A DNA stretch of 64,000 bases from Minisyncoccota bacterium (GCA_041664465.1 JBAYKP010000003.1:19405-83404); one strand, 5' to 3'; shown: positions 2,251 through 27,400, counted from the stretch's first letter. The notes: generated by a model from the sequence alone, not told the origin. Program-made: numbers and translations.

Positions 2251-3951
2251 ATGACACTCACATTTGATGACGACAAGCAAAAGAAAAATCTATCAGATTT
2301 GCGAAAGCAAGAGGAGGAGGACTTGGTGGATACATTAGCAGAGACTCGCTATGGAGTTCCTCCTGTGCATCTATCCGTTATTCCAATAGACAACGACGCT
2401 CTCCGTACTATAGATGAGAAAGAGGCCAGAGAGTTAGAAGTCGCTCCGTTCAAACTTCTCGGGAAAGATATTCACGTCGCTGTTCATTCGCCACAACCAG
2501 ATAAATTAGAAAATTTGAAAAAGTATTTTGCAGATCGCGAGTATATCCCCCATTTCTATATGGCATCCAAGTTTAGTTTAGAAAAAGCTTGGGATAGATA
2601 CAAAGAAATTTCATATGCTTCCGAATCCAAAGCAGGCGGTATAGCTATCTCAGGAGAAGTTTTGAAAAAGTTGATGGCGGGTATTAAGAATATTGAAGAT
2701 ATTAAAAAAGCAATTTTAGATATAGAAAAAGATAATATCCATACGACTTCCCACATACTAGAGATAGCTATCGCTGGGGCTGTCGCTATCAATGCTTCCG
2801 ATATACACTTTGAGCCAGAAGAAAATACTGTGCGTTTAAGATTCCGTCTCGATGGAATTCTCCATACAGTAATGGATATCCCCCCTGCCGCTCACAAATT
2901 TATAAATTCTCGCATCAAGCTTATCTCTGGTCTTAAGATTACTGCGAACTCTATCGCTCAAGATGGGCGATTCAGCATCTGGCTTGATCAAGATGAGATT
3001 TCTCTCCGCGTCTCTCTCATCCCCGGAGCCTACGGCGAATCTATCGTGATGCGTATCTTAAATCCGAAATCTATCAGAGTAAAACTTGAAGATATGGGTA
3101 TAGAGCCCAAATTGTATGAGATATTCATGAAAGAAATAAAGAAGCCCAATGGTCTCATTCTCCTCACAGGTCCGACTGGCTCTGGTAAGACGACGACTCT
3201 CTACTCTTTCCTACAGAAAATTTATTCGACGGAAATTAAAATTATCACCATAGAAGACCCTATCGAATATCATTTGCCGGGGATTACCCAGACTCAGACA
3301 GATGAAGAAAAGGGTTATACTTTCCTAGAAGGCTTGCGTTCATCTCTTCGCCAAGATCCTGATGTCATAATGGTAGGAGAAATCCGTGATAGCGAGACAG
3401 CCAAGATTGCCGTGGAGTCTGCCCTTACTGGGCACCTCGTCTTCTCTACTTTGCATACGAACAACGCTGCTGGAGTCATCCCTCGTCTGATAGATCTAGA
3501 AGTGAATCCGAAAATTCTAGTCTCGGCGTTGTCTCTATCAATTGCTCAGCGTCTAGTAAGGAGGCTCTGCCTCAATTGCAGAAAAGAAAGAGTAATAAAA
3601 CCAGAAGAATTATCTTTAATAAATGGAATGATAGAAAAAGCGAAATCTTATGGAAAAGATTTCGCAGATTATGGAGTAGATATGAAGAATCCATTTAAAT
3701 TCTATGAAGCTACTGGATGTCTAGAATGCAACAATACGGGATTCAAGGGTCAGATAGGAATATTTGAAGCAATTTATAATGATGCCAAGATAGAAGATAT
3801 AATTGTGACGAATCCAAGTGAAAGAGAAATCAAAGAAGTAGCAAAGAGCCAAGTCTCTCTCAATATGCAACAAGATGGCCTTGTGAAAATACTAAAAGGA
3901 ATCACTTCTTATGAAGAAGTCGCCAGCACAGTGGATTTCTACGAGGAATAA
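2251..3951 (+). CDS. pilB: type IV pilus assembly ATPase PilB/GspE family
   Basis: Walker A GPTGSGKTTT, Asp and His boxes, tetracysteine CxxC...CxxC motif, GspE-N-like N-terminal domain. Confidence 0.85.
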   Translation: MTLTFDDDKQKKNLSDLRKQEEEDLVDTLAETRYGVPPVHLSVIPIDNDALRTIDEKEARELEVAPFKLLGKDIHVAVHSPQPDKLENLKKYFADREYIPHFYMASKFSLEKAWDRYKEISYASESKAGGIAISGEVLKKLMAGIKNIEDIKKAILDIEKDNIHTTSHILEIAIAGAVAINASDIHFEPEENTVRLRFRLDGILHTVMDIPPAAHKFINSRIKLISGLKITANSIAQDGRFSIWLDQDEISLRVSLIPGAYGESIVMRILNPKSIRVKLEDMGIEPKLYEIFMKEIKKPNGLILLTGPTGSGKTTTLYSFLQKIYSTEIKIITIEDPIEYHLPGITQTQTDEEKGYTFLEGLRSSLRQDPDVIMVGEIRDSETAKIAVESALTGHLVFSTLHTNNAAGVIPRLIDLEVNPKILVSALSLSIAQRLVRRLCLNCRKERVIKPEELSLINGMIEKAKSYGKDFADYGVDMKNPFKFYEATGCLECNNTGFKGQIGIFEAIYNDAKIEDIIVTNPSEREIKEVAKSQVSLNMQQDGLVKILKGITSYEEVASTVDFYEE

Positions 3952-10073: not shown

Positions 10074-11171
10074 TTATCTATTCATTGGCATTACCAAGTA
10101 CATAAAAGATGAATCTCCTACTGGTCTTATTATCATCGGTCTATTATTGCCATTGAACTCAAGTACAAGTGAGTCCGCAGTCACAGACAAGAAGCAATCT
10201 ATAATATATTTGTAATTAAAATTAAGTAAAACATTTTCTCCAGAAATTGCTGCCCCAATAAGTGTAATATTTTCACCAATATCTGTATTCTTAGCTTCTA
10301 TTTCAAAAACTTTTTCGGATGGTTTGATATTGAAAGTAACTTCATTAAATTTATTTGAAAAAATATTTGATATTTTAAGAGATGAAATAAAGTCTTGTTT
10401 TAATAAAGTGGCTTCGGTGGTAGGATTCTTGGGGATTATTTGTTTGTAATCTGGGAAAGATCCATCGATAATCCTCGAAGTAAGATAAACATTAGCAGAT
10501 GAAAATGATATTTGATTTTTCTGAAGAGTAATCTTAATATCACCTTCTATAGAATCAAGAACCTTAATAATTTCAACTGTATTTTTAAAAGGAAGTAATA
10601 TTCCACTGAAAGAGAGCTTTTGTTTTACTTTTACTTTCTTTTCTGCCAATCTAAACGAATCAGTGGCCACAAAGACAAGGAGATCATCTTCTGGATATAT
10701 ATAAACACTTCCTATTTCTGGTTTAATCTCAGATATAGAAGCACTATAATAAACAGATTTTATCCCTTCTAAAAATTTCTTGGCTGGTATGAGCAATTCT
10801 TCTCCTTGTATAACTGGAATAGTTGGAAAGTCTTCATTTGGGATACTCTTCAAAATAATGGTATTTAATTTTGTTTTAACAGATAAATTATTATTAATTA
10901 ATTCAAAAGAAACAATTTGATCACCAGAAAGTACAGAAAACAAAGACGAGAGGACATCACTTCTTATGGCTACTACTCCCTCTTTCTCAATTTTAGCTGG
11001 GACTTCCATCTCTATACCAATGTTTAAATTTGTAGCTCTTAGTTTCAATGTTTTACCAGTAGCTACCCAGAGAACAGAACCAAGTACTGGTAGAGTTAGA
11101 TTCTTGCCTGTTATTCTATCTACTATCATCAATGCGTTTTTAATTTTTTCTATTGAGCATTCTAACTTCAT
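10074..11171 (-). CDS. dnaN: DNA polymerase III beta sliding clamp
   Basis: three-domain clamp length (365 aa), N-terminal pattern typical of DnaN, directly downstream of dnaA. Confidence 0.85.
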   Translation of the reverse strand: MKLECSIEKIKNALMIVDRITGKNLTLPVLGSVLWVATGKTLKLRATNLNIGIEMEVPAKIEKEGVVAIRSDVLSSLFSVLSGDQIVSFELINNNLSVKTKLNTIILKSIPNEDFPTIPVIQGEELLIPAKKFLEGIKSVYYSASISEIKPEIGSVYIYPEDDLLVFVATDSFRLAEKKVKVKQKLSFSGILLPFKNTVEIIKVLDSIEGDIKITLQKNQISFSSANVYLTSRIIDGSFPDYKQIIPKNPTTEATLLKQDFISSLKISNIFSNKFNEVTFNIKPSEKVFEIEAKNTDIGENITLIGAAISGENVLLNFNYKYIIDCFLSVTADSLVLEFNGNNRPMIIRPVGDSSFMYLVMPMNR

Positions 11172-11386
11172 ATATTTGTATAGTTAATTTATTAATATAA
11201 TTTATTATTACTACTATGGGTGTGAATATGTGTATTACTTTTTTATATATATTTTACTTATGTTATTTTTTATTTTTAATAATTTTTGATTTAACTATTT
11301 TTGAATAAATATTTTTATAATACTTTTGGACAAAGTTATTAACATTTTTATCTTTTATAAACACAGTTTATCCACATAGATATAAT
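11172..11386. promoter_or_regulatory. candidate oriC: AT-rich dnaA-dnaN intergenic region with a perfect DnaA box TTATCCACA at 11368-11376 and a TGTGAATA-like box near 11212
   Basis: box read directly; long A/T runs suitable for DNA unwinding; canonical oriC position. Confidence 0.45.
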
Positions 11387-12745
11387 TTACTTAAACATAA
11401 TTCTTATTTTTTCAATCTCTTGTAATAATGCTGGGTCTGTTTTCAAATCTTCTTTTATCTTTAAATGTGAGTGGATAGCAGTAGTATGATCTCTTCCCCC
11501 CAATTTGCTTCCTATAAGAGGATAAGAGATGTTGAAATCTTCTCGGAGGATATACATTGCTACTTGTCTAGCCTTCACTATTTCTTTGCGTCGCGTCTTC
11601 TCATATATAACTTCTTCAGAAATTCCATAATGATTAGCGATAACACCCACAATATCCTTAATAGCTACGGTTTTCTTGGGTTTAATATTATTTTTAATAA
11701 GAGCCTTAATTTCGTTTAAAGATAACGATTTGTTTTTAAGTTGAGTCTGACAAATTATTGTGTTTAGGCTACCTTCAAGCTCACGGATGTTTCCCTCAAG
11801 TATCTCTGCTAGATAAGAAATTACATCATTTTCTATAATTGAATTAGTGGATTCAAATTTAGCCTTTATAATTGCAACTCTTGATTCATAATCTGGCTCA
11901 ACAATTTGGACGGTCATCCCAGAGGCGAATCTAGACTGAAGTCTTTCCTCTAATCCTTGTATGAAATTAGGGTGTTTATCAGAAGAAAAGATAATCTGTT
12001 TATTACTTTCGTATAAAGTATTAAAAAGGTGGAATAATTCTTCTTGGGTTTTATCTTTACCAGAGATGAATTGAATATCATCCATTATAATCACATCATA
12101 TTTGCGGTATTTTTCTTTGAAGGAATTTGGGTTCTTGTTTTGGATTGAATTTATATAATCAATTGCAAATCTTTCCAATGAAACATAATATATTTTCTTG
12201 TTTGGGTGTTTTATCTTTATGGTATTACCTATGGCTTGTATCATATGAGTTTTACCAAGACCTGTCCCTCCATAAACAAAGAAAGGATTATAATTTTGCC
12301 CTGGGTTAGCGATAATCGCTTGAGCGACAGCATAAGCCAGCTCATTGAAAGGTCCTACAATGAAAGAATTAAAATTATACTTTGGGTTTAAGTTATCTTC
12401 TTTGTTTAAATATAAATCGTTTAATGGAAGCTCTTTATTTATATTTATTTGTTTATGAACTACATTTTCTATGTTTTTATTTGAGATTTCATTTTTGTGA
12501 ATTATATATTCAATACTACGTATCCCCTCTTCATAGCTTATGATTGTCTTTAATATTAGTTTGTGAAATTTATTATAAAGCCAATCCTTCACAAATTCAT
12601 TGGGAACTCCAATATATAAAGTCCCACCCTCTTCTTTTATTATTGATGTATTCTTAAACCAAGTCGTGAAATTAGCCTTTGATATATTTAATTCTACCTC
12701 AGACAGACACTTTTCCCAGAGTTCTTTTGTATTCATAGAAACCAT
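11387..12745 (-). CDS. dnaA: chromosomal replication initiator DnaA (ORF open to 12826; start placed at the conserved MVSMNTKELWEKCL N-terminus)
   Basis: AAA+ Walker A GGTGLGKTH, C-terminal DNA-binding signature IGSKLGGRDHTTAIHS; DnaA box TATCCACA (minus-strand sense) at 12804-12811 just upstream. Confidence 0.85.
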   Translation of the reverse strand: MVSMNTKELWEKCLSEVELNISKANFTTWFKNTSIIKEEGGTLYIGVPNEFVKDWLYNKFHKLILKTIISYEEGIRSIEYIIHKNEISNKNIENVVHKQININKELPLNDLYLNKEDNLNPKYNFNSFIVGPFNELAYAVAQAIIANPGQNYNPFFVYGGTGLGKTHMIQAIGNTIKIKHPNKKIYYVSLERFAIDYINSIQNKNPNSFKEKYRKYDVIIMDDIQFISGKDKTQEELFHLFNTLYESNKQIIFSSDKHPNFIQGLEERLQSRFASGMTVQIVEPDYESRVAIIKAKFESTNSIIENDVISYLAEILEGNIRELEGSLNTIICQTQLKNKSLSLNEIKALIKNNIKPKKTVAIKDIVGVIANHYGISEEVIYEKTRRKEIVKARQVAMYILREDFNISYPLIGSKLGGRDHTTAIHSHLKIKEDLKTDPALLQEIEKIRIMFK

Positions 12746-12803
12746 TATACTCGTGTTTTCAAAAACACAATAATTAAATACCTTAATTAAGCTGTTGATA
12801 ACG

Positions 12804-12811
12804 TGTGGATA
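12804..12811 (-). promoter_or_regulatory. DnaA box (TATCCACA) in the dnaA/rpmH divergent promoter region
   Basis: plus strand tgtggata; position typical of dnaA autoregulation. Confidence 0.4.
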
Positions 12812-12862
12812 TGTTTTCCTCCACATATTGCTTTATATGTCATTTTAGTATATATTTTCCAT

Positions 12863-13003
12863 ATGTCTTTAACATATCAACCAAACAAAAGAAAAAGAGC
12901 CAAGACCCACGGATTCTTAGTTCGTGCTAAAACCCCAGGAGGTAAAAAGGTTACGAAGGCACGTCGTCAGAAAGGACGCGCTAAAGTATCAATTGCAAAA
13001 TAA
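12863..13003 (+). CDS. rpmH: 50S ribosomal protein L34
   Basis: [30 protein letters not shown]...; internal start of the longer ORF 12803..13003; putative -35 TTGCTT / -10 TATATT with the -10 ending 6 nt before the ATG. Confidence 0.85.
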
Positions 13004-13005
13004 TT

Positions 13006-13326
13006 ATGCTCGCAAAGAAAAAACGAATCACCAAAAATACTTTTCAAACCATTATGGAGAAAGGAAGTATCGTTTCTGGTTCGTTTTTTCTTTTGCGTTA
13101 TTTAAGACAACCATCCCCTATTTATGCCTTCGTAGCTCCTAAAAAGATTGCCAAGACTGCGGTTAAAAGGAATTCCCTTCGAAGAATTGGTTATAATATC
13201 CTCCGTTCATATGATCTGGAATCTTGTGCTGGAATATTTTTTTATAAAAAAGAAGCATTATCGGCTACCAACATAGATCTTAAAAAAGATATAGAAACTA
13301 TATTAAAGAAAATTAATCTAATTTAG
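13006..13326 (+). CDS. rnpA: ribonuclease P protein component
   Basis: basic roughly 106-aa protein directly after rpmH; canonical rpmH-rnpA synteny. Confidence 0.8.
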   Translation: MLAKKKRITKNTFQTIMEKGSIVSGSFFLLRYLRQPSPIYAFVAPKKIAKTAVKRNSLRRIGYNILRSYDLESCAGIFFYKKEALSATNIDLKKDIETILKKINLI

Positions 13327-13331
13327 ATAAT

Positions 13332-13538
13332 ATGAAAAGATTTTTTATAAAATTAATTAATTTTTATCAAAAAATTCCATTCAAATCACATAATTCCTGT
13401 GTATTCTTGCCTACTTGTTCAGAATATACTAAAGAAGCTATTCTTCGGTATGGTATTTTAACCGGTATTTATAAGGGTTTTAAGAGAATTCTTCGTTGTC
13501 ATCCTTGGCAGAAAAAGCATTATGATCCACTAAAATAA
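13332..13538 (+). CDS. yidD: membrane protein insertion efficiency factor YidD
   Basis: conserved Cys and CHPW motif (LPTCSEY...LRCHPW). Confidence 0.8.
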   Translation: MKRFFIKLINFYQKIPFKSHNSCVFLPTCSEYTKEAILRYGILTGIYKGFKRILRCHPWQKKHYDPLK

Positions 13539-13580
13539 TTAATAATTTTTAATTATTAATTAATATGCTACAATAGAGCA

Positions 13581-14324
13581 ATGTCAGCTTTATGGAACAC
13601 CATCTTTTATCAGCCAATTTATAATATCCTTATGTTTATTATAAACCACGTCACTTTCGGTGATGTTGGTTTTGCTATTATAATAGTGACCATTATCGTC
13701 AAACTTATTCTTTCTCCTCTCACCAAAAAGTCCATTAAAAGCCAGATTCTTATGAAGAGAATGGAGCCCGAAATCAAACTTATCAAGAAGAATTATCCCA
13801 ATAAAGAAGAACAAGCTAAAAAAACCTTTGAATTATATAAGAAATATGGGACCAATCCGTTTTCTGGTTGCTTGGTAGTATTACTTCAATTGCCAGTTAT
13901 TTTCGCTTTGTATTATGTATTTTTAAAAGGGCTTTCTCTAGACACCATAAATACTAGTCTAATTTATCCTTTTGTAGGCGTTCCTTCTCTTATGCATACC
14001 AACTTCTTAGGCTTTATAGAAATGGGAGGCAAAAGCATAATTCTAGCCGTTTTAGCGGGAGTTACGCAGTTCGTTCAAGGGTATCTCTCCTCCCCTATCA
14101 CTCCCAAAGTTGAAGTTGTGGGAGATGCCACCCCCAATGAACCTAGGACATTTCAAGATGAATTATCTAGTAGTATGCAGACTAATGTGAAATATATTCT
14201 CCCAATATTTATAGCTTTCATTTCTTGGCAAATTTCAGCTGCGGTTGCTCTCTACTTTGTTATTAGTAATATATTTACTATTCTTCAAGAATGGTATATA
14301 AGAAGAACATTAGATAATAAATAA
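13581..14324 (+). CDS. yidC: membrane protein insertase YidC (short form)
   Basis: multi-TM Oxa1 fold; synteny; TGcTACAAT extended -10 at 13566-13574 ends 6 nt before the ATG. Confidence 0.8.
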   Translation: MSALWNTIFYQPIYNILMFIINHVTFGDVGFAIIIVTIIVKLILSPLTKKSIKSQILMKRMEPEIKLIKKNYPNKEEQAKKTFELYKKYGTNPFSGCLVVLLQLPVIFALYYVFLKGLSLDTINTSLIYPFVGVPSLMHTNFLGFIEMGGKSIILAVLAGVTQFVQGYLSSPITPKVEVVGDATPNEPRTFQDELSSSMQTNVKYILPIFIAFISWQISAAVALYFVISNIFTILQEWYIRRTLDNK

Positions 14325-14332
14325 ATTTCAAT

Positions 14333-14794
14333 ATGGATCAAGAACTTGTAAAATCAATCATAGAAAATATTTTTACACATACAGCTTGTACTATTTCCAA
14401 GTGCGAACTATCCCTTGAAGATGGGATGCTTTGGTGTATGATTGAAACTCCAGATTCAAGATTTATGATTGGACGTGAAGGAGAGACCCTCAGATCCCTC
14501 AATCATTTAGTCCGTAAGATTGCTGAGAAGGCAAGTGGCACAGAAGAAATTTCTAATATCTTTGTGGATGTGAATGGATATCAAAAGAAAAGATTTGATA
14601 ATCTGAAAAATATTGCTCATATGATGGCCGAGAGAGCCCGCTATTTTAAGAGTAATATCGAGATTGATCCTATGCCTGCCAATGAACGTCGCATTGTTCA
14701 TATGTTCTTAGAGAAGATTCCAGATATTAAAACAGAATCAGAAGGCTATGGACCAGAGAGAAGAGTGGTAATTAAATATATAGGAAACAACTAA
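14333..14794 (+). CDS. khpB: Jag/KhpB R3H-domain RNA-binding protein
   Basis: KH-like fold plus R3H motif (ERRIVHMFL); canonical position after yidC. Confidence 0.75.
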   Translation: MDQELVKSIIENIFTHTACTISKCELSLEDGMLWCMIETPDSRFMIGREGETLRSLNHLVRKIAEKASGTEEISNIFVDVNGYQKKRFDNLKNIAHMMAERARYFKSNIEIDPMPANERRIVHMFLEKIPDIKTESEGYGPERRVVIKYIGNN

Positions 14795-14796
14795 AT

Positions 14797-14838
14797 CTCC
14801 CCCTGCTAAGGGGGAGTGCCTGAAAGGCGAGGGGGTCA
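14797..14838. repeat. hairpin repeat family 2, copy B
   Basis: ctccccctgctaagggggag tgcctgaaaggcga gggggtc; intergenic. Confidence 0.45.
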
Positions 14839-16038
14839 AAGATCCAAACTCCACAGCATACCGTCTTTTTTGTTTATGAAGAATAAACTATTTTCTTTAT
14901 CACTTAGGAATAAATTAGTAGCATCTATGGGTGTCTCATTGCTAGAATTGGCAAAGGTAGTAGTCTCTTTAGTCTGGGTATTTATTTTTATAAATCTATC
15001 TTCAAAAGATATTAACCCTTGATACCAATAATCAGGATATTGCGTTCCTATTATTGTATTGGGGATAGCGCAATAAGCATTTATATTGTCATTACTCCAA
15101 ACACACTTCTCAGGTAATCCATATATATCTAAATCAAAAGATGTATGATTTTTAATATTAAAAACGTTTAATTTAGGGCCGATATTAAGAGAGGCTCCAT
15201 ATAATACAAGGTTGCCATTACTACTGGCAAGAGTCGTGAGGCCTGGGATACCTCCGAAAAGTTTCGTCAATGTTCCATTGGTAGTATTTAGACTGAAAGT
15301 ACTTCCATCTACTAGATAAGATGGCTTAGTAGTCAGATAGACGCCTTGATTTGTAACCCATTGTGGCAACCACTCAGAGAAACTAGAAGTGAAGACTTGG
15401 GAAGTCTTCGTCTCATCAAAAGGTTTAATCACTCCTATCACACCATTTTTATTTTTTATAATAGAAAAGAATTTAGTTTTGTCTGGAGATAGGCTGACTG
15501 CTGTAATATCAGGGTTTAAGAAACTGCCACTCTTCCCTCCAAGAGAAGCAAGGAAGCTTGTAATACTTTTATCATCAGATGAGGCATATCTATAAACAAT
15601 AGAAGTTCCACTGCCATTGAAAATTGTTTCGTAGACACTCGGAATTGTGGAATTTGATATTTTTCCAGTTATTTTCGTATCTAGATAAATTTGATATATA
15701 TGTCCAGTGGCACGTTCTACATATCGTAGTGATGGCACTGCTACCCCGTCTCTCATATCTTCAAAGAAGACAGCTCCAGCTACCGCGAAGTCTGTTATTT
15801 TATGGAAGCGTGAATTCTCCTTGATCACTTCTCCGGTTGTTGATGTGGTCACTTCATTTGGAGTAGTTGTCGTAGGAACTTTTGAACTTGTGCCAAAGGG
15901 ATTAAACTTTTGGTAAATACTTGTATTTGGGTCAGTTACAGCTACTCCCCTACTTTTGTTATAGAAATAAATACCGAGCATTATCGCTCCTACAAGTATA
16001 AACGCTGTTATGAAAATAATTATTGTTTTTCGTGGCAT
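14836..16038 (-). CDS. membrane-anchored extracytoplasmic hypothetical protein (Ser/Thr-rich linker, beta-rich domain)
   Basis: single N-terminal TM helix; first gene of the T4SS-like block on the minus strand. Confidence 0.5.
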   Translation of the reverse strand: MPRKTIIIFITAFILVGAIMLGIYFYNKSRGVAVTDPNTSIYQKFNPFGTSSKVPTTTTPNEVTTSTTGEVIKENSRFHKITDFAVAGAVFFEDMRDGVAVPSLRYVERATGHIYQIYLDTKITGKISNSTIPSVYETIFNGSGTSIVYRYASSDDKSITSFLASLGGKSGSFLNPDITAVSLSPDKTKFFSIIKNKNGVIGVIKPFDETKTSQVFTSSFSEWLPQWVTNQGVYLTTKPSYLVDGSTFSLNTTNGTLTKLFGGIPGLTTLASSNGNLVLYGASLNIGPKLNVFNIKNHTSFDLDIYGLPEKCVWSNDNINAYCAIPNTIIGTQYPDYWYQGLISFEDRFIKINTQTKETTTFANSSNETPIDATNLFLSDKENSLFFINKKDGMLWSLDL

Positions 16039-16049
16039 AAATTAATTAT

Positions 16050-17525
16050 TTAACACCCCCAACCATTTGCTGTTAGTTTATTAAAGTTGGCTTCAACTCT
16101 TGGTGCATATATTCTAGTTTGTTGGTATCCAGCATAAGCCGTGCATTGCCAATTTGTTGATCCTGGGCAAGCAGTAGCCTCTTTATTTGCACCAGGTCCC
16201 CCATTATAAGATGCAGCTAAATATTGTATATTTGAGATGTCACATACTGAAGATTTTGCAGAAAGATTACAACCATTTTTTTGGAGTTTGCTGAGATAAC
16301 TTGCACCAGCCATTATGTTTGTTTGTGCATCCATAGGGTCAGATCCTACACCTTGTTCCGCAAAGGTTTTTGGCATAAGCTGTATGAGTCCTTGAGCTCC
16401 TGATGGGCTTGTTAGATTATTTACCCCTCCAGACTCAGCATACATAAAAGATTTTAAGAGAGTACAACTCAATCCGTATTTTGAAGCAGCAGTTTTCAAC
16501 TGAGCATCGTATGTAGTTATATTTTTATTGGCATTTGGATTTCCAGGAGTTCCAATTGTAACTCCATAATAACCTCCGCCAGATGTTTGGGTTATTTCTA
16601 CACTTGCGGTATCTATTACCAACCCCTCTTTCCCTGTCAGTGCTGGATTGATAGTATTGAGTAATGCCCAAGCGCCGAGAGCTATGATTAATCCAAGGAC
16701 AGCTGAGAACATTTTCTTTTTCGCTTCAGTTTTGCCGAAAACAGATTCATCCCCCATATATGAGACTCCAGCTATTATAAGCATTATGACTGCAAGAGCA
16801 GCACATATCCCAATAGCAAGCTTGAAAATTATATTTAGATATTTCCCGATATCATTTGATATACAGTTTGTATCTTTACCACTTGAATCCATACAAGTAA
16901 TGTTGCCGATAGGAGCCAGCATTTTATAAATACTTTTATTCTCCGCAACATTTATTTTAGGAGTGACATCCACAGCAGGATCTTCTGCTAGTGCTATGGT
17001 TCCACTTGCATATATTTCATTATAATTACCATTAAAATCAGGATTAGCATTATAAATTTTCCAATGGAAAGGGACATTATTCTCTTTTGTTATTGAGAAA
17101 AGAAGCGCCATTGGGATTCTTACTGTTTTTTCTATTGTTTTCCCTTTATTTTCATCAGCGTTCATTTTTGTAACATACATCACCCCGTTGTCACTATTAG
17201 CTATAATCTCTGCTGGTGCTTCCGATAAACCAGATTTAAGAACAGTCCCACGAAGATCAAGCCGCTTACTATTAATATCAGCCTCAAAATACGAGTTAGC
17301 GTTTATGTCATTTGGTGACCCCATTGTTGTTGGGTTGTCTGCAACCTTAAAAGTAAAAGTAAAATCGTAATATTGACCACCAAAATTATTTACATCATAT
17401 TTATAAAGGTTAAGTGGAACATTTTTATTAATTAAAGAAATATTACCCGCCAATACCGAAGCAGGCATAATGAGATTTGTAAATAAAATAAACGATATTA
17501 AAATAGAAGAAAATATTTTTTTCAT
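16050..17525 (-). CDS. lytic transglycosylase (SLT domain) with N-terminal extracellular domain and central TM segment; VirB1/PrgK/TcpG-like cell-wall hydrolase
   Basis: C-terminal SLT catalytic motifs AESGG...GLIQLMP...YNGGPG; signal peptide; adjacent to VirB4. Confidence 0.7.
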   Translation of the reverse strand: MKKIFSSILISFILFTNLIMPASVLAGNISLINKNVPLNLYKYDVNNFGGQYYDFTFTFKVADNPTTMGSPNDINANSYFEADINSKRLDLRGTVLKSGLSEAPAEIIANSDNGVMYVTKMNADENKGKTIEKTVRIPMALLFSITKENNVPFHWKIYNANPDFNGNYNEIYASGTIALAEDPAVDVTPKINVAENKSIYKMLAPIGNITCMDSSGKDTNCISNDIGKYLNIIFKLAIGICAALAVIMLIIAGVSYMGDESVFGKTEAKKKMFSAVLGLIIALGAWALLNTINPALTGKEGLVIDTASVEITQTSGGGYYGVTIGTPGNPNANKNITTYDAQLKTAASKYGLSCTLLKSFMYAESGGVNNLTSPSGAQGLIQLMPKTFAEQGVGSDPMDAQTNIMAGASYLSKLQKNGCNLSAKSSVCDISNIQYLAASYNGGPGANKEATACPGSTNWQCTAYAGYQQTRIYAPRVEANFNKLTANGWGC

Positions 17526-18560: not shown

Positions 18561-18654
18561 TCTCCCCTCCTTACCAAGGAGGGGACCAAGGAGAGGTTCT
18601 TAATTAATTAGGAACCTCTCCCTCCCCTCTCCTTAGTAAGGAGAGGAGCTAATT
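18561..18654. repeat. GC-rich palindromic repeat family 1, copy 2
   Basis: tctcccctccttaccaaggagggga...cttaattaattaggaacctctccc...ctccttagtaaggagagg; overlaps the VirB4 stop codon. Confidence 0.6.
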
Positions 18655-20478
18655 ACCACCCGACACAGCCAGATCATCCTTTGCTTTCTTAATAGCAAGG
18701 ATTTGAGATGGATCAGATGTGATAATTTGGTCTTCTGTATATGAAGCGATTGTCTTGATGGCTACGTGCTTGAGTCCAGCAAAGAATATTCCTTCTCCGA
18801 CATTGGCTTCGAGAAGTAGATACTTTTCTTCATCAGTAAGACTGAAAGTCTTCTGGAGGACATCAATAGTCGCTGGGGATTGCTTTAATAGAAGCTGAAT
18901 AGAAGAGTTCGTCACGATAGGCACGCCATAAGGGCTCTTCATAAAGTCCCCTACATCTTGGGTAATAGTAGCCAGACCTAGATAATATTTACGCCCTCTC
19001 TTAGCAATAGAATAAAGGAATGAAGCGGTATCTTCTGATTTCATCATCCACCAAGCTTCATCCACGACGAGTAATCGCTTCTTAAGATTTTTACGGACAG
19101 CATTCCAGATGAAGTGAGTGACTATATACATAGCCACAGGCTTGAGTTCATCTTCCATATCTCGCACAGAAAAGACGACGAATTTACGATTGATATCCAC
19201 ATTGGATGGTCTATTGATAAATGATGCCCAAGAACCGTGCGTATACTTCGCGATACGCTGTATTAGAGAGTTACTTCCCTCCATTCCAGCGAGGACAACT
19301 TCAAAGTCTGAAAGAAGTGGAGGTTCTATATTTGCAAAATTGGAAGATGCCGTTATGTCTTTCAGGGCATAAGTCTCTGTTATAGCTCGGTCTATGATGG
19401 AATCCTCTTCTGGCGTAAGTCCTCCGAGCATTATTCGGAATAATCCTACGAGGTTTATGGTATTGGAGCGGAGGACGTCGGCGGCTGTCTCATCCGGTCG
19501 TGGTATTGGTAGATCAAATGGGTTGATATGGTGGTCAGAGGAGAGGGCGATATTGAAATATCTACCACCTATGGCTTCTGCCAAGTATTCATATTCACGT
19601 TCAGGGTCTATGACAATAACTTCTGCATCAAACATAAGTGTACGGATAATTTCAAGCTTCGTGGCATAAGATTTACCAGCTCCAGCTGTGGCGAAAGTTA
19701 TAGAGTTGTAGTTTGGAAGAGAAAATCTGTCAAAAATGATAAGACTAGAGTTGTGCCTGTTCACTCCATAGAGAATTCCCTTATCTGAAGTCAAATCAAA
19801 TGAGACAAAAGGGAAAATACTTGAGAGAGGCTCTGTATCAAGCTTCTGATGAATTCCTAAAATATCAGTCCCCAGAGGAATAACACTTTTGAAGCCTTCA
19901 ACTTGTTGGAATAATGCTGGCTTCAAGTAGACAAGCTTAGAATCTAGAAGAGACTTCACCTCACTCTCTATTTTGAACAAATCATTTTCATTATCAGCAT
20001 AGACAGTAATATAAAGCCCCACATCAAACATTTTATTTTGAGCTTGCATTAGACTGTCACGCAAATTCTCGAGATCTTGGTAGGCAGTATCTAGCATCGG
20101 GTCGCGGACCAAACCTTTGGACTCACGGACAGATATTTGGCTTTGAACTTCCGCCACTTTCTTTTGGAAAGATCTTAGTATGTCGGCAGTTTCTATTGGG
20201 TGTATGAAGATAGAGACGTCAAAAATTTTGTCCAAGTTCACAATTGGTGAGAACCAATTATCCGTAAGATATCTAGGATAAGAAATGACGAAGAAAGTCC
20301 TCGCTATCTTATCTCCTAAATTTATAGACTTGGGGGTTATCTGAAGTGCCGAAGGTGCGATTACATCTTGGAGCTCAAGAGTGGCCGCTTTGTATATTTC
20401 GGTTGGCAAAACAGGCATAACGGTATTCGTCTGTTTTGATTTATTGCCCCCACTAAATATTGATGAAAATATTCCCAT
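18649..20478 (-). CDS. VirB4/TrbE/CagE-family T4SS ATPase, C-terminal part including the ATPase domain
   Basis: Walker A GAGKSY, Walker B hhhVVDEAW, family-typical central and C-terminal motifs. Confidence 0.75.
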   Translation of the reverse strand: MGIFSSIFSGGNKSKQTNTVMPVLPTEIYKAATLELQDVIAPSALQITPKSINLGDKIARTFFVISYPRYLTDNWFSPIVNLDKIFDVSIFIHPIETADILRSFQKKVAEVQSQISVRESKGLVRDPMLDTAYQDLENLRDSLMQAQNKMFDVGLYITVYADNENDLFKIESEVKSLLDSKLVYLKPALFQQVEGFKSVIPLGTDILGIHQKLDTEPLSSIFPFVSFDLTSDKGILYGVNRHNSSLIIFDRFSLPNYNSITFATAGAGKSYATKLEIIRTLMFDAEVIVIDPEREYEYLAEAIGGRYFNIALSSDHHINPFDLPIPRPDETAADVLRSNTINLVGLFRIMLGGLTPEEDSIIDRAITETYALKDITASSNFANIEPPLLSDFEVVLAGMEGSNSLIQRIAKYTHGSWASFINRPSNVDINRKFVVFSVRDMEDELKPVAMYIVTHFIWNAVRKNLKKRLLVVDEAWWMMKSEDTASFLYSIAKRGRKYYLGLATITQDVGDFMKSPYGVPIVTNSSIQLLLKQSPATIDVLQKTFSLTDEEKYLLLEANVGEGIFFAGLKHVAIKTIASYTEDQIITSDPSQILAIKKAKDDLAVSGGN

Positions 20479-20485
20479 AATAATT

Positions 20486-21139
20486 TTATTGTAATTTAAT
20501 TCCTTGACTAATATCCCCAGGATTGAATGTCTTATAGAAAAGTTCTACGACTTCGTCCGTTTTAAGCTGACTACTTCGTATCCCTATCCCACTTAATCCA
20601 TTAATAATGACGTTCGTTCTTTGTTCTAGCTGGCTACGCTTCTCCTCGAAAGATGCTAGATCCATAGCCTTCTTGGTATCCTCTACTTGTTTCTTGGGGG
20701 CTCCGCCACCAATCAGACTATCTACTATGCCATTCCCAGATTTTATAATACTTGAACTATATGGCACAACGACGAAGAAAGTTTTCGTCATTATGTTCAC
20801 TTCATCTGTGAAAGATCGAATGAAGTCTATATATTCTTTCGTCTGTATTTTAAGGAGGGGTTCGGTTTGCTCTTTCAAGCGATTCTCAAGCATTAAGAGA
20901 TATGGCCTTATATTCAAGCGTCTGGACTGGATTACAATTTGAGTGGAGAAATCTAGACCATTTAAGAATGATTGGAATTGATTAATAATGGCGACTTGTT
21001 CATCGGAAGACTTAAGAGAGAGGTTGATGGAGGAAGCGATAAGGATAGCACGAAGACCACCATCCTTAAGTACAATGATGCCATTGCGGACCTCCTTTAT
21101 AGGAACGAACTCTTGTGCTGCTTTTGAATCAATTGCCAT
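20486..21139 (-). CDS. VirB4-family N-terminal domain, separate ORF ending 7 nt upstream of the ATPase ORF in a different frame
   Basis: pattern IKEVRNGIIVLKDGGLRAILIASSINLSLKSSDEQVAIINQFQSFLN typical of conjugative VirB4 N-termini; the two ORFs total 826 aa. Confidence 0.5.
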   Translation of the reverse strand: MAIDSKAAQEFVPIKEVRNGIIVLKDGGLRAILIASSINLSLKSSDEQVAIINQFQSFLNGLDFSTQIVIQSRRLNIRPYLLMLENRLKEQTEPLLKIQTKEYIDFIRSFTDEVNIMTKTFFVVVPYSSSIIKSGNGIVDSLIGGGAPKKQVEDTKKAMDLASFEEKRSQLEQRTNVIINGLSGIGIRSSQLKTDEVVELFYKTFNPGDISQGIKLQ

Positions 21140-21163: not shown

Positions 21164-21574
21164 CTATTTATCGTTTCTATCTTGAACGTCCAAACTCCAA
21201 GATAAATCCTTCAATTTACTTTCTGAAAGCATTGGTACATTGGATATGGTAGTGGGCATTTGCACATCTTCATCTTGTATATCCCCTTTCTTTACAAGTC
21301 TTTGCTTCCACAAGTAAAGTTTGCTTGAGATTAAGTAATTAAAAGAAGCTTCTAAATAATATATGAAAGGCTTGCCATTTATTTTCACAAAGACGAGGCA
21401 GACAGTAAGCCCAGCGACGGGTAAGATAAGGAAGATGCCTATCCAAAGTGGCAAGATTTTGTATATGACGAAAATTATTCCTCCTCCACCAATCAAAAAG
21501 GCAAATTGGCGAAAGGTAAAAGGGCCAAAAATTTTATCTTCTATGTCTATAAATTGTGGTACTTTGAATTGCAT
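21164..21574 (-). CDS. small two-TM membrane protein, PrgI/VirB3-like
   Basis: 136 aa, two TM helices, immediately upstream of VirB4. Confidence 0.4.
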   Translation of the reverse strand: MQFKVPQFIDIEDKIFGPFTFRQFAFLIGGGGIIFVIYKILPLWIGIFLILPVAGLTVCLVFVKINGKPFIYYLEASFNYLISSKLYLWKQRLVKKGDIQDEDVQMPTTISNVPMLSESKLKDLSWSLDVQDRNDK

Positions 21575-22611: not shown

Positions 22612-25374
22612 TTAGTGATGAGCCCCACCTCCTCCATGTGCATCTCCTCCTGTGCTTGTTGGTGCTTTTGGAACTTCTATTTTTACACCCTTCAGTGCTT
22701 CTGTAATTGTTGCTCCTATATCTTTTATCGCATCTCCTTGCCCTTGTCCGTGGTTAACCCCAGAGCTCTTTAATCCAGCACGAACACCAAGAGCTACTCC
22801 AGCAATCATAGCAGTTGGAATTTTATTAAAGAATCCGTCTCTCTTATCTGTATTAACTTGAGAAATATTTCGAACATCATAACTAGCCTTATTTGATCTA
22901 GCGAAGCCTCTTGTAAGCATTGAAACATTTTGTTTAGATTCTTCACGTAAGTGTTTGAATAATCCTTCAAGTTGAGCATCTGTTGTAACTTTTACTGCGG
23001 CATTTAATTTGATATCCAATTCATCTTCCATTTTCTTCTGTACTTCACCCTTTAACTCACCATTTTTATCCAAATTCTTTGAATCTTTTTTCAACTCAGC
23101 AGCCACTTCTTCTCGGTTTTTTGATTTGAACGCCTTTTCTCCTACAAAACTACGGCCCTTTTCATCTACAATTCTTGCTTCGTTTTTACCAGTAGCATCA
23201 AGACCTTTTCTTGCATTTGTTTCAACATCAGATCTCTTTGTCTTATTAAAGGTTGTTTTTAGCTTGTTTTCATCTTCACCAGAAATATTACTATCTTCTA
23301 ATATATTACCATTAGCATCTACAAGTCCAGCAGCTTTCTTCGTCTCGTCTATTTCATGACGAGCATGGTCAATCTTATTCGTATCTCTTTGTGATTTATT
23401 TAGCTGAGCACCCAAACGACTAAATACGTTAGTTTTAGGAACAGCATTTGCCTTTTTATGATCTTCCCATGTTGGTTTAGCCCCTCTTGTTTTAGGATCT
23501 GCAGCTTTCCACTTCTCAAGGTTATCATTGAATTTAATTTTTTCTGTTTTTATTTTATCAAGATTTTCTGGAGTAGCTCCTTCCATTCGTGACATTTTAG
23601 CTATTCCTGCACCAACGACTCTTCTTCCTAATAATGCAGTTCCAAGTGCCGCTCCACCAAGAAGCATTCCACCAGTTGCGGCTATTCCTCCTGTAATTTG
23701 TTTACCTATCTCCCCAGACATATCTGAAGCGATACCTTTTGCTTTTATAAGGAAAATCATTATAAAAATAAAAGGTATGGTTATTCCTAAAATAAAATCT
23801 AAACCACTTTTACCATCGGTAGAGAAAAGACCTAGCCCAGTATCAAGGAATTTAATTATTATATATAAAAAGAAAATAAATACAGGGGCAAGGAATGCCA
23901 TCTTCAAAGTATCTGGCCACCAATTCTTCCATCCAATCATTTTTATACTAGACATTTCAGGAAGTATATAAGTGAAGAATGCAAGTGGGGCTAGGATCAT
24001 AGCGAGCCAGAGTCCGATGACTCGAGCCACGAACATTAATCCAACAGAAATAAATACAATAATCCCAACAATATTAATGGCGGATGTTAGTAAAATAACC
24101 AAGATAAAAGTGCTAGCAGAGATTCCATTTTTTTGGGTTCCATCTGATCCAATATTTCCTTTTGCTGTTATATTACCGACGTCTGATGCATTTATAATTA
24201 ATTTTTGTGGATTAATTTTTGAAACAAGCGCTTCTGATAATTTTATTTCACCGGTAGATCCAGGTGCATTTTGTATTACCCCATCAATCTTGGGGCCTAC
24301 TTTTATAGCGTCTGAATTGTAGAAAACTCTAGCAGTAATATTGGATGCATCAATAATCACTTGAGTAGCGAAAAGAGAAAAGTTTATAAATAGTCCAATG
24401 ATAACTATATTTATAATAGTTTCTTTGGTTTTCACACTATGCAAGTTTAGTATTGTGCCTATCGCTATATAAAGCATTATGAATATGAAAAATAAATTAC
24501 AGAAATCACGCACAAGCCCCCAGCCTTGCACTACGAAAGTAGACCGATACGAAGAATCTTGGACAGAGTATGAAAAAGTTTTATCAAACAGTGTTCCAGA
24601 TAAAGCAAATAAAACAGAAGTTGGTTTGAAGACTGCCCAATAAAGAAGACTACCAAAACAGCCACCAATATTACTCCAAAAATTCCATGGACATTGTGGT
24701 AGTATAGAATCAAGATAATTTTGATTAACATTTACATTTTTATCAAGAGTCACCACCTGTGGGTTATCAGCGCTGTTTGTTGTTATTGCGGGAGATTCAC
24801 CTATGGATGTTTCATTTGATTCAGTACCGGGATCTGCAAGTTTAGCACCAATTGCAATACCGACTGCCATTCCTAAAGGATTTAAAGTAAAAATTCCTGC
24901 TACAACACCACCAGCAAATCCACCAGCAGCACTAACGATAGTGGAGGCCCAAAGAGGAGTTGTTTGCGATGCAACAGTTTTTAAAACATATGTTGTGCTA
25001 GGATTTAAGTTTGGAAAATTAAAGCTACCAGTTCTTACTACATAAGCTTCTTTCTCCATAGTAGTATTATCTCTTACTGCATCTTCAAGTTTAATATTCT
25101 GTACGAAAAGTGCGACATTATTTGTGTCTAAAAGATAAACAATTGCCGCAGCCTTACTTATATTAAAATCACCACTTTCAAAGACAACGCGTACGGTCCC
25201 AGATATTGTGGTGTTTGTCTTTTGTGGAGATGTTGTTACTTTTATACTATCAGCCGCACTGGCTTCATTCTTCCCAATCTCCACCTTATTTTTATTCCAC
25301 CCCACACTAAACGGAGCGAAGAGGTTCGCAGAGATTATGAGTGATATTAAGATGTATGATATGATTCTCTTCAT
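22612..25374 (-). CDS. large polytopic membrane protein, VirB6/TrbL-like candidate: signal peptide, roughly 300-aa exodomain, multi-TM core, long Lys/Glu-rich tail ending in Gly/His
   Basis: topology read from the translation; head of the operon containing VirB3/VirB4. Confidence 0.45.
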   Translation of the reverse strand: MKRIISYILISLIISANLFAPFSVGWNKNKVEIGKNEASAADSIKVTTSPQKTNTTISGTVRVVFESGDFNISKAAAIVYLLDTNNVALFVQNIKLEDAVRDNTTMEKEAYVVRTGSFNFPNLNPSTTYVLKTVASQTTPLWASTIVSAAGGFAGGVVAGIFTLNPLGMAVGIAIGAKLADPGTESNETSIGESPAITTNSADNPQVVTLDKNVNVNQNYLDSILPQCPWNFWSNIGGCFGSLLYWAVFKPTSVLFALSGTLFDKTFSYSVQDSSYRSTFVVQGWGLVRDFCNLFFIFIMLYIAIGTILNLHSVKTKETIINIVIIGLFINFSLFATQVIIDASNITARVFYNSDAIKVGPKIDGVIQNAPGSTGEIKLSEALVSKINPQKLIINASDVGNITAKGNIGSDGTQKNGISASTFILVILLTSAINIVGIIVFISVGLMFVARVIGLWLAMILAPLAFFTYILPEMSSIKMIGWKNWWPDTLKMAFLAPVFIFFLYIIIKFLDTGLGLFSTDGKSGLDFILGITIPFIFIMIFLIKAKGIASDMSGEIGKQITGGIAATGGMLLGGAALGTALLGRRVVGAGIAKMSRMEGATPENLDKIKTEKIKFNDNLEKWKAADPKTRGAKPTWEDHKKANAVPKTNVFSRLGAQLNKSQRDTNKIDHARHEIDETKKAAGLVDANGNILEDSNISGEDENKLKTTFNKTKRSDVETNARKGLDATGKNEARIVDEKGRSFVGEKAFKSKNREEVAAELKKDSKNLDKNGELKGEVQKKMEDELDIKLNAAVKVTTDAQLEGLFKHLREESKQNVSMLTRGFARSNKASYDVRNISQVNTDKRDGFFNKIPTAMIAGVALGVRAGLKSSGVNHGQGQGDAIKDIGATITEALKGVKIEVPKAPTSTGGDAHGGGGAHH

Positions 25375-25472: not shown

Positions 25473-26171
25473 TTAATTACTATTATTATCAAGATTTAAT
25501 TTTAGTAAGAAAATAGTCTCCTTTTTAAGTTTTTCACGGGCCCAATCCTTTTGAGACGAAGAAAGCAATTCCCCAAGACCGTCTAAGATATGCTTATTAT
25601 CCATATTTTCAAGCATCTTTATACACTTGATCAAAGTATCTTTAAAAGATATACCAGATCTATTTTCCACTATCTTTTTATTTATCTCCCAGTTGTTTTT
25701 ATAAAAGAAATAAACATCAAATATGTCTCTGCTTGTTTTGCCAATTCTTTCATACATAGCCATAAGTTTATGGGCAAACATATCTTCTTTGACCATTACA
25801 AGCATTGAGATGCCGAGCAATGTTTTAATCTCATATTTAGAGCCAAATTGTCTACGGCTCACTTCTACTTTTATTTGCTGAGCTCCTTTCTTATATGAAA
25901 TAATATTAAGCAAATTGAAATGCTTTATCCTAGATTCTGTGATAGTCCCATAGCTTTCAGTAATTTTCTGAATCTTATTAAAGACCTCTTCTTCCTTAGT
26001 ATCATCCAATAAATCAAAATCAAGATCCACTGAATTACGATCTAAGCCGTAGAATAAAAGAGCGGCAGTGCCACCTTTGAATCCAAGATATGGAGAGATA
26101 GAGGTGTCAGAATAAATATCTTTCAAGATTTGAAGTAATATATTTTTGTGTTTTGAATAGTCTAATGTCAT
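25473..26171 (-). CDS. AbiEii/AbiGii-family nucleotidyltransferase (type IV toxin-antitoxin or abortive-infection toxin)
   Basis: FKGGTAALLFYGLDRNSVDLDFDL matches the family GGTAL...R.S.DLDF signature. Confidence 0.55.
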   Translation of the reverse strand: MTLDYSKHKNILLQILKDIYSDTSISPYLGFKGGTAALLFYGLDRNSVDLDFDLLDDTKEEEVFNKIQKITESYGTITESRIKHFNLLNIISYKKGAQQIKVEVSRRQFGSKYEIKTLLGISMLVMVKEDMFAHKLMAMYERIGKTSRDIFDVYFFYKNNWEINKKIVENRSGISFKDTLIKCIKMLENMDNKHILDGLGELLSSSQKDWAREKLKKETIFLLKLNLDNNSN

Positions 26172-26191
26172 ATTTTTTTATTTTCTTCTTT

Positions 26192-26839
26192 TTATTTTTT
26201 AAAATCATCATAATACTTCTTCACGGTTTTTGCCATTCTCTTATTATGATAGATTGGCAAGATTTCAAATACTTTTTCCCAATCTAATGGGTTTGTGTTA
26301 TCAATATAATATTTTTTACTTACATATATACGGTCTAAGTAAGCACGCTCTTTTGTTGCTCTGGCATAACCGTCACTATTTTCAATTCCTAAAGTATTAC
26401 TTAATACATAATCTTTCATTCTAATAAATTCTATTTTTTGTCCATCAACTTCCATTTCTCTTTTTATGTATGAAGCCACAAAAATATTTCCATAATATTG
26501 GAAAGTCATACCAGATGAACCCAAGACAGTTTCAAAGCTGATATATGAAGGAGTATTTATTCTAGTGGCTAATTCAAAGCGGTTATAGTTTTTATCTTTA
26601 ACATATAAACCACGATGAACTCTAATCAACTTCTTTGCTTTAACGTAGTAATTCAATCTCACACGCACAGGTCCGTTAGCCTTTTCTCCCCACATTAAAG
26701 CAACATCTTTATTGGAAAAGACGGTTTTACTAGACCTCAATAAAATATCTAAATATTCCCCTTTTTGAATTTTTTTATCCATATATCTACTGGAACTTAG
26801 TTTAAACCTAACATCCAGTCCATATACTAGCATAAACAA
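26192..26839 (-). CDS. AbiEi-family antitoxin/transcriptional regulator candidate
   Basis: directly upstream of AbiEii on the same strand; LIRVHRGLYV matches the AbiEi motif; probable start at the internal MDKK. Confidence 0.45.
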   Translation of the reverse strand: MFMLVYGLDVRFKLSSSRYMDKKIQKGEYLDILLRSSKTVFSNKDVALMWGEKANGPVRVRLNYYVKAKKLIRVHRGLYVKDKNYNRFELATRINTPSYISFETVLGSSGMTFQYYGNIFVASYIKREMEVDGQKIEFIRMKDYVLSNTLGIENSDGYARATKERAYLDRIYVSKKYYIDNTNPLDWEKVFEILPIYHNKRMAKTVKKYYDDFKK

Positions 26840-26986
26840 TATATAAATACAACCCTTTTAATCTCCTCCTTATAGAGTGGCTGTAAGCCGGGATGGACTG
26901 ACATTTGACACATTTTACATATCTGATATACTGTACTTACATTCGGGATTTTCCCGCGACCCTACTGGTAAAACAGTGGGGAATAT

Positions 26987-27400
26987 TTATTTATACAGAC
27001 TATTAAACCCTATTCTAACCTTTTTAAAATCTTCACCATCTAATGTTCCAAGTTTTGAGAATAGTCTACGATAATCCACAACCCTTACTTGATGTAAACA
27101 AGCAAACATTTCTATGTTTTTATGAATAAAACCCACATACCAAGAACCCCTTTTGTCTTTCGTTGTAGTAGGAATAATAAGATAGAAACTGTGTGATAGT
27201 TTCTTATAAATAATTCCAGGTCTTGTAAATATTTCACTTTTACCATTTATCTCTGATCCAACATTTTCTCCTAGACTTATCCACCAAATATCTCCCTCTG
27301 ATACAAAAGGAGGCCGCGATTCTTTATTGTGCAACTTCTCTTTCAACCCTATCCATTCTAGAAATTTTTTAATTATATTATGTTTTTCTTTTTCCAACAT
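26987..27400 (-). CDS. MazF/PemK-like endoribonuclease toxin with about 40-aa N-terminal extension
   Basis: GDIWWISLGENVGSEI...RPGII, IIPTTTK and HQVRVVDYRRL align with MazF GDLIWVDF...RPAVVL, CVPCTTQ and ADQVKSIAWRAR. Confidence 0.5.
   Translation of the reverse strand: MLEKEKHNIIKKFLEWIGLKEKLHNKESRPPFVSEGDIWWISLGENVGSEINGKSEIFTRPGIIYKKLSHSFYLIIPTTTKDKRGSWYVGFIHKNIEMFACLHQVRVVDYRRLFSKLGTLDGEDFKKVRIGFNSLYK

Follow-up and report, generated by a model that had tools for sequence, protein, structure and literature searches.

A probable conserved two-gene VirB4 in a chromosomal type IV secretion cluster of Candidatus Paceibacterota

Two adjacent genes on the minus strand of the window, by which we mean the whole 64,000-nucleotide stretch of DNA analysed here, very probably constitute a genuine and conserved two-gene VirB4 in a chromosomal type IV secretion system (T4SS) cluster of Candidatus Paceibacterota (Patescibacteria). 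Comparison with profile models and with fused relatives shows homology of the predicted products of the two genes, ORF-N and ORF-C, with successive stretches of single-chain VirB4. A two-gene arrangement of VirB4 is already known from Patescibacteria (PMC12102498, Quinonero-Coronel et al., Microb Genom 2025). We add the anatomy of the junction, evidence that the two halves complement each other exactly, a structural confirmation and the fused counterpart found in Colwellbacteria.

Results

ORF-N (20486..21139, minus strand) encodes a TrsD/TraD-like protein of 217 aa, which exists as a separate polypeptide and is homologous to the initial ~200 residues of VirB4. ORF-C (18649..20478, minus strand) starts with the ATG at 20478-20476 and encodes an N-terminally shortened VirB4-family ATPase of 609 aa. 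The junction between them (20479..20488, minus strand) consists of the ORF-N stop codon TAA at 20488-20486 and the 7-nt spacer aattatt at 20485-20479. The reading frame of ORF-C is +1 relative to that of ORF-N, and this frame is open for ~60 nt upstream of the ATG. The Walker A motif ATAGAGKS is located at residues 263-270 of ORF-C (19669..19692, minus strand) and the Walker B motif LLVVDE at residues 469-474 (19057..19074, minus strand). Added up, the two proteins comprise 217 + 609 = 826 aa, compared to 823 aa for the solved TrwK/VirB4 chains and 752-894 positions for the VirB4 HMMs. The original prediction, which gave no strand, had described two ORFs of these lengths in different frames with TAA and 7 nt between them, both Walker motifs on the second ORF and a joint length normal for VirB4, and all of these features are indeed present.

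Within 20 nt of the ORF-C start codon we could not detect a Shine-Dalgarno (SD)-like motif, the closest being AAGGA 22 nt upstream. An SD-like 4-mer at positions -5 to -15 is found for only ~5 of the 47 ORFs in the window, and the genome is AT-rich (35% GC). Since SD-like motifs are rare across the window, a missing SD at ORF-C is the norm of this genome and carries no weight; the observation that no SD separates the two ORFs was correct, while the significance originally attached to it was over-read. No heptamer of the type XXXYYYZ occurs in the final 90 nt of ORF-N, the region in which a search for slippery sites had been suggested. The RNA around the junction (81 nt) is predicted to fold with -5.3 kcal/mol, which is no better than shuffled sequences (z 0.21).

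By its profile matches, ORF-C is a T4SS ATPase of the VirB4/TraC/CagE family. It matches the Pfam models P-loop_TraG (E 2.9e-24), AAA_10 and DUF87, and it scores 366.7 bits against NF045971 (NCBIfam 'VirB4-like conjugal transfer ATPase, CD1110 family') with a cut-off of 325. Residues 31-574 of ORF-C align to positions 182-734 of the 752 positions of this CD1110 model. In other VirB4 models the first aligned position is 290 of 894 (VirB4_plasma) and 298 of 792 (TIGR00929). Among solved chains, the nearest matches are 4ag5, which is the C-terminal domain of VirB4 (E 1e-36), and TrwK, the latter over residues 447-735. According to these HMM coordinates, the VirB4 N-terminal domain is incomplete in the ORF-C polypeptide and the absent segment is encoded by ORF-N. 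ORF-C keeps ~230 residues of N-terminal-domain sequence before its P-loop domain, and the break point, as placed by the alignments, is inside the VirB4 N-terminal domain and not at the boundary between N-domain and ATPase domain. The Pfam model TraC_F_IV bridges the position of this break in fused proteins. The earlier description of the split as N-domain and ATPase holds in so far as there is an N-terminal part and a remainder, but it misplaces the border between them.

ORF-N shows weak and consistent matches at N-terminal positions of the VirB4 models, namely 2-119 of CD1110 and 104-233 of VirB4_plasma, the latter with 38.4 bits and far under the curated cut-off of 590. The VirB4 homology that had been read from the 217-aa sequence is in this way recovered by HMM search, with scores under the cut-offs. 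Against the TrsD/TraD model NF041427, ORF-N reaches E 1.8e-8 and 34.5 bits, far under the cut-off of 200, and hhalign of the ORF-N family with TrsD of pSK41 yields a full-length alignment with a probability of 81.5%, E 1e-5 and ~18% identity. The family PF26593.2 ('TraC-like') is precomputed for P0026, the representative of the 90%-identity cluster of ORF-N, and also for all ORF-N homologues listed. Our Pfam scan of ORF-N returned no match even at E <= 10, and the same result was obtained for P0001, for which PF26593.2 is precomputed. Because P0001 also remains without a match, the library used most likely does not contain PF26593, and the absence of a match is no evidence against homology.

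Searches of ORF-N against PDB sequences by phmmer and by profile hmmsearch returned no VirB4, which was found by fold comparison only. The predicted fold of ORF-N, from an AlphaFold model built with a 136-sequence alignment, matches TrwK in a fold search; the model from the single sequence (pLDDT 34.8) was useless. Since the aligned residue range of TrwK is not contained in the search tables, the N-terminal placement rests on the HMM coordinates and on fused homologues. In the single-chain protein P0191 (797 aa), residues 7-213 match ORF-N with 43% identity and residues 230-796 match ORF-C with 56% identity, and P0191 aligns to positions 18-725 of TIGR00929 VirB4_CagE. These data support the assignment of ORF-N as the detached N-terminal part of VirB4, with the rest and the ATPase encoded by ORF-C. 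ORF-N also fits the gene context of TrsD, whose gene specifies ~200-230 aa and is flanked by genes for a VirB3-like protein and a VirB4-like ATPase. In NCBI, ORF-N is deposited as MFA6392771.1 (hypothetical) and ORF-C as MFA6392770.1 (DUF87 domain-containing protein), both from a Candidatus Paceibacterota MAG; the former is a TrsD-like VirB4 N-terminal module and the latter the matching VirB4 ATPase. The core of the original reading as VirB4 was right, while the probable membership in TrsD/TraD and the published arrangement (PMC12102498) had not been recognised.

A scan with one genome per species revealed 80 loci, all from Patescibacteria, with relatives of ORF-N at 64-94% identity, and 79 of these hold both halves. 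In all 79 loci both ORFs are intact, and their order and adjacency are strictly kept; the pair always comes behind the gene for the VirB3-like PrgI. The length of ORF-N ranges from 212 to 229 aa with the stop codons TAA (71 loci), TAG (4) and TGA (4), and the ATPase begins with ATG and the conserved sequence MG(I/L)FSS(L/I)F. The spacer is variable and extends from -4 to 288 nt: it amounts to 1 nt in 22 loci, 2-15 nt in 40, 26-84 nt in four and 119-288 nt in nine, and four loci show an ATGA overlap. The ATPase gene is found in relative frame 0, 1 or 2 in 21, 37 and 21 of the 79 loci, respectively. ORF-N has 5086 homologues, the best 120 of which are 215-218 aa long. A profile search gave 120 more with 207-280 aa, several of them named 'type IV secretory pathway VirB4 component' by JGI. 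For ORF-N, dN is 0.04-0.2 and dS is saturated, with dN/dS at ~0.03 where computable; strong purifying selection acts on ORF-N and likewise on ORF-C. In some species, a hairpin-flanked GIY-YIG element is inserted exactly between stop and start. The inverted-repeat element of the relatives (CCCGTTAGA) has no exact copy in the window, and matches with one mismatch occur at chance level.

Fused forms exist in at least ~118 single-chain clusters of 775-807 aa, mostly from Candidatus Colwellbacteria. These single-chain proteins carry the domains PF26593 'TraC-like', TraC_F_IV, DUF87, AAA_10 and P-loop_TraG. In one Colwellbacteria genome, PrgI is immediately followed by a fused VirB4 of 799 aa with PF26593, and there is no separate small gene. 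The fused Colwellbacteria gene adjoins jag/yidC/rnpA/rpmH/dnaA, which is also the neighbourhood in the window. From this shared dnaA-side neighbourhood it follows that either the split or the fused form, one or the other, occupies an orthologous site. In the comparison of split and fused loci that had been called for, all 79 related loci are split, and the Colwellbacteria locus at the orthologous site is fused. In an NJ tree of the N-domain, in which the fused sequences are not monophyletic and rooting with a Firmicutes outgroup is unstable, fused sequences are placed at least three nodes deep among split forms in 93 of 100 bootstraps; this is only suggestive of fused forms nested among split ones. 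P0426 and P0522, with 600-601 aa and 77-88% identity to the fused P0191, gave the impression of fresh splits within the fused clade, and P0426 was rejected because a stretch of N in its scaffold truncates it.

Other systems show this gene order as well. Megaplasmids of Bacillus thuringiensis Bt407 and of C. perfringens encode PrgI, an N-domain protein and a DUF87 ATPase in this order. On a haloarchaeal plasmid, a protein of 556 aa with an N-domain match is followed by an overlapping gene for 761 aa, both annotated as hypothetical. Many relatives of ORF-N carry C-terminal extensions of 100-220 aa without ATPase homology.

The surrounding genes fit a T4SS. A PrgI/VirB3-like small membrane protein of 136 aa (21164..21574, minus strand; Pfam PrgI with E 6.9e-10, and TcpE) is encoded 24 nt upstream of ORF-N. 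VirB3 is the membrane partner of VirB4 (PMC12102498), and the PrgI/VirB3-like protein is expected to take this role here. The first gene of the cluster (22612..25374, minus strand) encodes a 920-aa protein that is a candidate VirB6-like channel component. This candidacy is based on its hydrophobic sequence, as judged by eye, and on a weak TrbL_3 match of its positional counterpart in a relative (L086); a Pfam scan of the 920-aa protein itself gave no family match. A further protein of the cluster, with 491 aa (16050..17525, minus strand), combines a T4SS pilin (VirB2/TrbC-like) segment at residues 227-292 (T4SS_pilin, 28.3 bits, cut-off 26.6) with an SLT lytic transglycosylase (VirB1-like) domain at residues 345-452 (SLT, E 1.4e-15).

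The last gene of the cluster is a 400-aa ORF (16038..14836, minus strand). Just 3' of it, a consensus scan, as the only method applied, points to a terminator-like GC-rich hairpin (14797..14816, minus strand), which is probably the operon end. The successive intergenic gaps in the cluster amount to 9, 2, 24, 7, 117, 1 and 11 nt. A promoter scan of the cluster returned 32 hits with 41 expected, which is at or below chance and so says nothing about promoters inside the cluster. The genes dnaA, dnaN, yidC and jag are located at 10074-14794, with dnaA (11387-12826) a few kb from the cluster. T4SS of Patescibacteria are often found near the replication origin (PMC12102498), and the cluster in the window fits their chromosomal set with VirB4, TrsD-like protein, PrgI, pilin and candidate VirB6 near the origin.

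Discussion

A single-chain virB4 that has been broken by an indel or a nonsense change, through sequencing or assembly error or through recent inactivating mutation, is one alternative to a true two-gene arrangement. VirB4 is commonly a single chain, related Patescibacteria include fused forms, and artefactual splits do happen, as for the 600-aa P0426 with its run of N in the scaffold. The comparative data, however, have already refuted this explanation, and we regard it as having next to no chance of being correct. In 79 of 79 loci, which represent different species and different assemblies, both halves are intact and the ATG and N-terminus of the ATPase are conserved; stand-alone homologues are counted in thousands, dN/dS is ~0.03, and the databases NCBI, JGI and ENA all contain this identical pair of proteins. 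Programmed +1 frameshifting or stop-codon bypass, which would yield a fused VirB4 of 826 aa, is equally hard to credit. The +1 frame of ORF-C with its open stretch of ~60 nt upstream of the ATG and a spacer of merely 7 nt would agree with such recoding, but related loci make use of all three relative frames and their spacers vary between an overlap of 4 nt and a distance of 288 nt, inserted elements included. With neither a slippery heptamer nor a stimulatory structure (z 0.21), the junction lacks what characterises recoding sites of the prfB/dnaX type, and the conserved start codon and first eight residues of the ATPase are as predicted for an independent initiation site. Variable spacers in combination with three frames could be tolerated by no recoding mechanism, and such a pattern would not arise repeatedly by error. 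Three of the options listed in the original prediction, namely a sequencing error, an inactivating mutation and programmed frameshifting, are refuted by the 79 loci with both ORFs intact, the variable spacers, the three frames and the strong purifying selection; a two-subunit arrangement is supported, in which translational coupling probably plays a part.

A third explanation accepts two genes and assigns the 217-aa protein a role independent of the ATPase, as regulator, assembly chaperone or adaptor to VirB3/VirB6, rather than as a stoichiometric subunit. TrsD homologues of Gracilibacteria are not encoded beside virB4 (PMC12102498), many relatives carry the C-terminal extensions without ATPase homology, and long inserts separate the two genes at some loci. 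Against this, order and adjacency are strict in 79 of 79 loci, what the ATPase partner lacks is precisely the segment encoded by ORF-N, no additional free copy is present in fused lineages, and fused and split forms are found at the same chromosomal position. We consider this explanation improbable as an account of the window, while an independent role of TrsD is possible given the Gracilibacteria homologues.

For the preferred two-gene VirB4, we propose that both genes are co-transcribed in a tightly packed operon. For the translation of ORF-C we expect either termination-reinitiation across the 7 nt of the junction or initiation without SD, the general mode of this AT-rich genome, at the unstructured AU-rich start. 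Coupling is not required in every relative, as nine loci carry insertions of 119-288 nt. The two polypeptides would be joined by non-covalent contacts in a VirB4-like unit that docks on the VirB3-like PrgI. In this unit, the TrsD-like subunit would take the side by which single-chain VirB4 touches VirB3 and the membrane, and no fused protein would be made. Binding of ORF-N to ORF-C is a prediction from their homology to one chain.

Beyond that, the split could represent more than neutral gene fission, although we consider the following three proposals, taken together, rather doubtful. A docking interface, regulated or exchangeable, could exist between the free TrsD-like module and the short, conserved N-terminal peptide of the ATPase; this peptide reads MGIFSSLF followed by a Lys-rich stretch, and it recurs in split systems of Bacillota as MSFFKKKK, MKFGFKKK and MIMAFLKKKK. 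Secondary re-fusion within a background of split forms could have given rise to the single-chain genes of Colwellbacteria. The terminal stem of the GIY-YIG element would keep stop and start adjacent and in this way preserve translational coupling. If true, the locus would be a natural fission and re-fusion experiment on the assembly of the VirB4 N-terminal domain with VirB3.

The annotation of the window is settled in that neither MFA6392771.1 nor MFA6392770.1 is to be flagged as pseudogene or frameshift. VirB4 of Patescibacteria consists of two chains in most lineages and of one in Colwellbacteria, which shows structural biologists a defined position at which the N-terminal domain of VirB4 is broken in nature. 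For Patescibacteria, the T4SS has been reported as essential to epibiotic life: it is required for epibiotic growth of Ca. Southlakia epibionticum according to transposon mutagenesis (cited in PMC12102498), and trsD is listed as essential in this organism (PMC12102498).

The single-chain proteins VirB4/TrwK/TraC, with R388 TrwK (PDB 7o41-7o43, 8rtb, 8rtd) as solved example, have the domain content of the two window proteins joined together. They and the Colwellbacteria proteins P0191 and P0412 are one polypeptide of 780-823 aa, whereas the window encodes two. In P0191, a short linker takes the place of the ORF-N tail and of the ~35 N-terminal residues of ORF-C (MGIFSS...VMPVLP). Fusions of VirB3 with VirB4 occur in some conjugative systems (PMC12102498) and represent a similar plasticity along the axis of VirB3, VirB4 N-domain and VirB4 ATPase in the opposite direction, towards fusion; in the window PrgI is a separate gene and no such fusion is present.

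The plasmids pSK41/pGO1 of Staphylococcus belong to a subclass of MPF_FATA, and TraD/TraE of pIP501 are linked to them by the family name NF041427. With 135/227/672 aa, trsC-trsD-trsE of pSK41 have the same order and matching sizes as the window genes with 136/217/609 aa. The pSK41/pGO1 system is plasmid-borne and conjugative with relaxase and coupling protein, unlike the window locus, and trsE of pSK41 has its own SD gaagggag with a 14-nt spacer, while the ATPase gene in the window has none.

The closest known systems are the TrsD and VirB4 pairs of Patescibacteria. TrsD has been described as a remote homologue of the VirB4 N-terminus that is usually associated with virB4; of its 2,272 homologues in Patescibacteria, 1,664 occur in association with VirB4, and outside this phylum TrsD is restricted to the pGO1-type subclass of MPF_FATA (PMC12102498). 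That study assigns no function to TrsD. The window locus shares with these pairs the phylum, the gene set and the site near the origin, and without any difference of substance it is one more instance of them. What has been worked out here beyond that study is the anatomy of the junction, the complementary shortening of the ATPase and the fused forms of Colwellbacteria.

Chromosomal setting of the T4SS cluster

The genes dnaN, dnaA and yidC and a jag/KhpB-like (R3H) gene, at 10074-14794 of the window, directly adjoin the T4SS cluster. The cluster is therefore chromosomal and lies near the probable replication origin. The same neighbours are found at the Colwellbacteria locus L086, where VirB4 is fused. 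Immediately upstream of the cluster, on the minus strand, are toxin-antitoxin-like genes (25473-27400). An AbiEii-toxin/AbiEi-antitoxin-like pair occupies 25473-26171 and 26192-26839, and the gene for a PemK/MazF-like toxin lies at 26987-27400. The cluster also includes a minus-strand gene (16050-17525) for a 491-aa protein with an N-terminus that, judged by eye, is signal-peptide-like. Residues 227-292 of the protein form a T4SS pilin/TrbC (VirB2-like) segment, and residues 345-452 form an SLT lytic transglycosylase (VirB1-like) domain. The protein is a fusion of pilin and hydrolase.

The junction between trsD and virB4

The split in the window is conserved, in contrast to that in P0426 (L085:1200-1720), a 600-aa 'N-terminally truncated' VirB4 with 88% identity to the single-chain VirB4 P0191. 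We rejected P0426 as a genuine split, because a scaffold run of N cuts through a fused gene. In precomputed annotations, every homologue of ORF-N, the TrsD-like protein, is assigned to PF26593.2 ('TraC-like'). A local Pfam-A scan gave no match for ORF-N, and since it also gave none for the PF26593.2-flagged homologue P0001, this model is most likely missing from the local copy.

Regions 5' of ORF starts in the window are AT-rich (e.g. ...ataat ATG), and for ORFs of 120 aa or more across the whole window, an SD-like 4-mer at -5 to -15 is present in about 5 of 47. Judged from these sequences, translation in this genome appears to start mostly without Shine-Dalgarno pairing.

An insertion with terminal inverted repeats of 12 bp (CCCGTTAGAAGT...ACTTCTAACGGG or CCCGTTAGAGAT...ATCTCTAACGGG) occupies the spacer between trsD and virB4 in 9 of the 79 related species, and it stops exactly where the ATG of virB4 begins. 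Its long form of 283-288 nt (L018 ~3655-3937, L039, L042) contains a gene for a GIY-YIG nuclease of 84 aa (Pfam E 6.6e-17). Its short form of 119-126 nt (L003 ~2441-2566, L009, L024, L046, L051, L054) looks like a MITE-like derivative. Copies are also present elsewhere between genes in these related loci (L046 and L048 ~1248-1357; L052 ~1188-1455); the window contains no copy of this inverted-repeat element. The element ends form a stem in six of nine folds of insertion-bearing spacers, the exceptions being L024, L051 and L054. Such a stem would, in these models, place the stop and start codons close to each other.

Comparison with other split systems

A short peptide at the N-terminus is common to the ATPase subunits of split systems; it consists of a hydrophobic patch and, after it, a Lys-/polar-rich stretch. 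In the window (20455-20478, minus strand) it reads MGIFSSIFSGGNKSK. Its counterparts are MSFFKKKKSKNK (Bt407), MKFGFKKKNQKN (C. perfringens) and MIMAFLKKKKQEQ (TrsE of pSK41); positions outside the window are L081:5854, L082:5950 and L084:26584. The fused P0191, in contrast, has a short linker in its place. The peptide could serve for docking or act at the membrane, as a feature peculiar to the split form.
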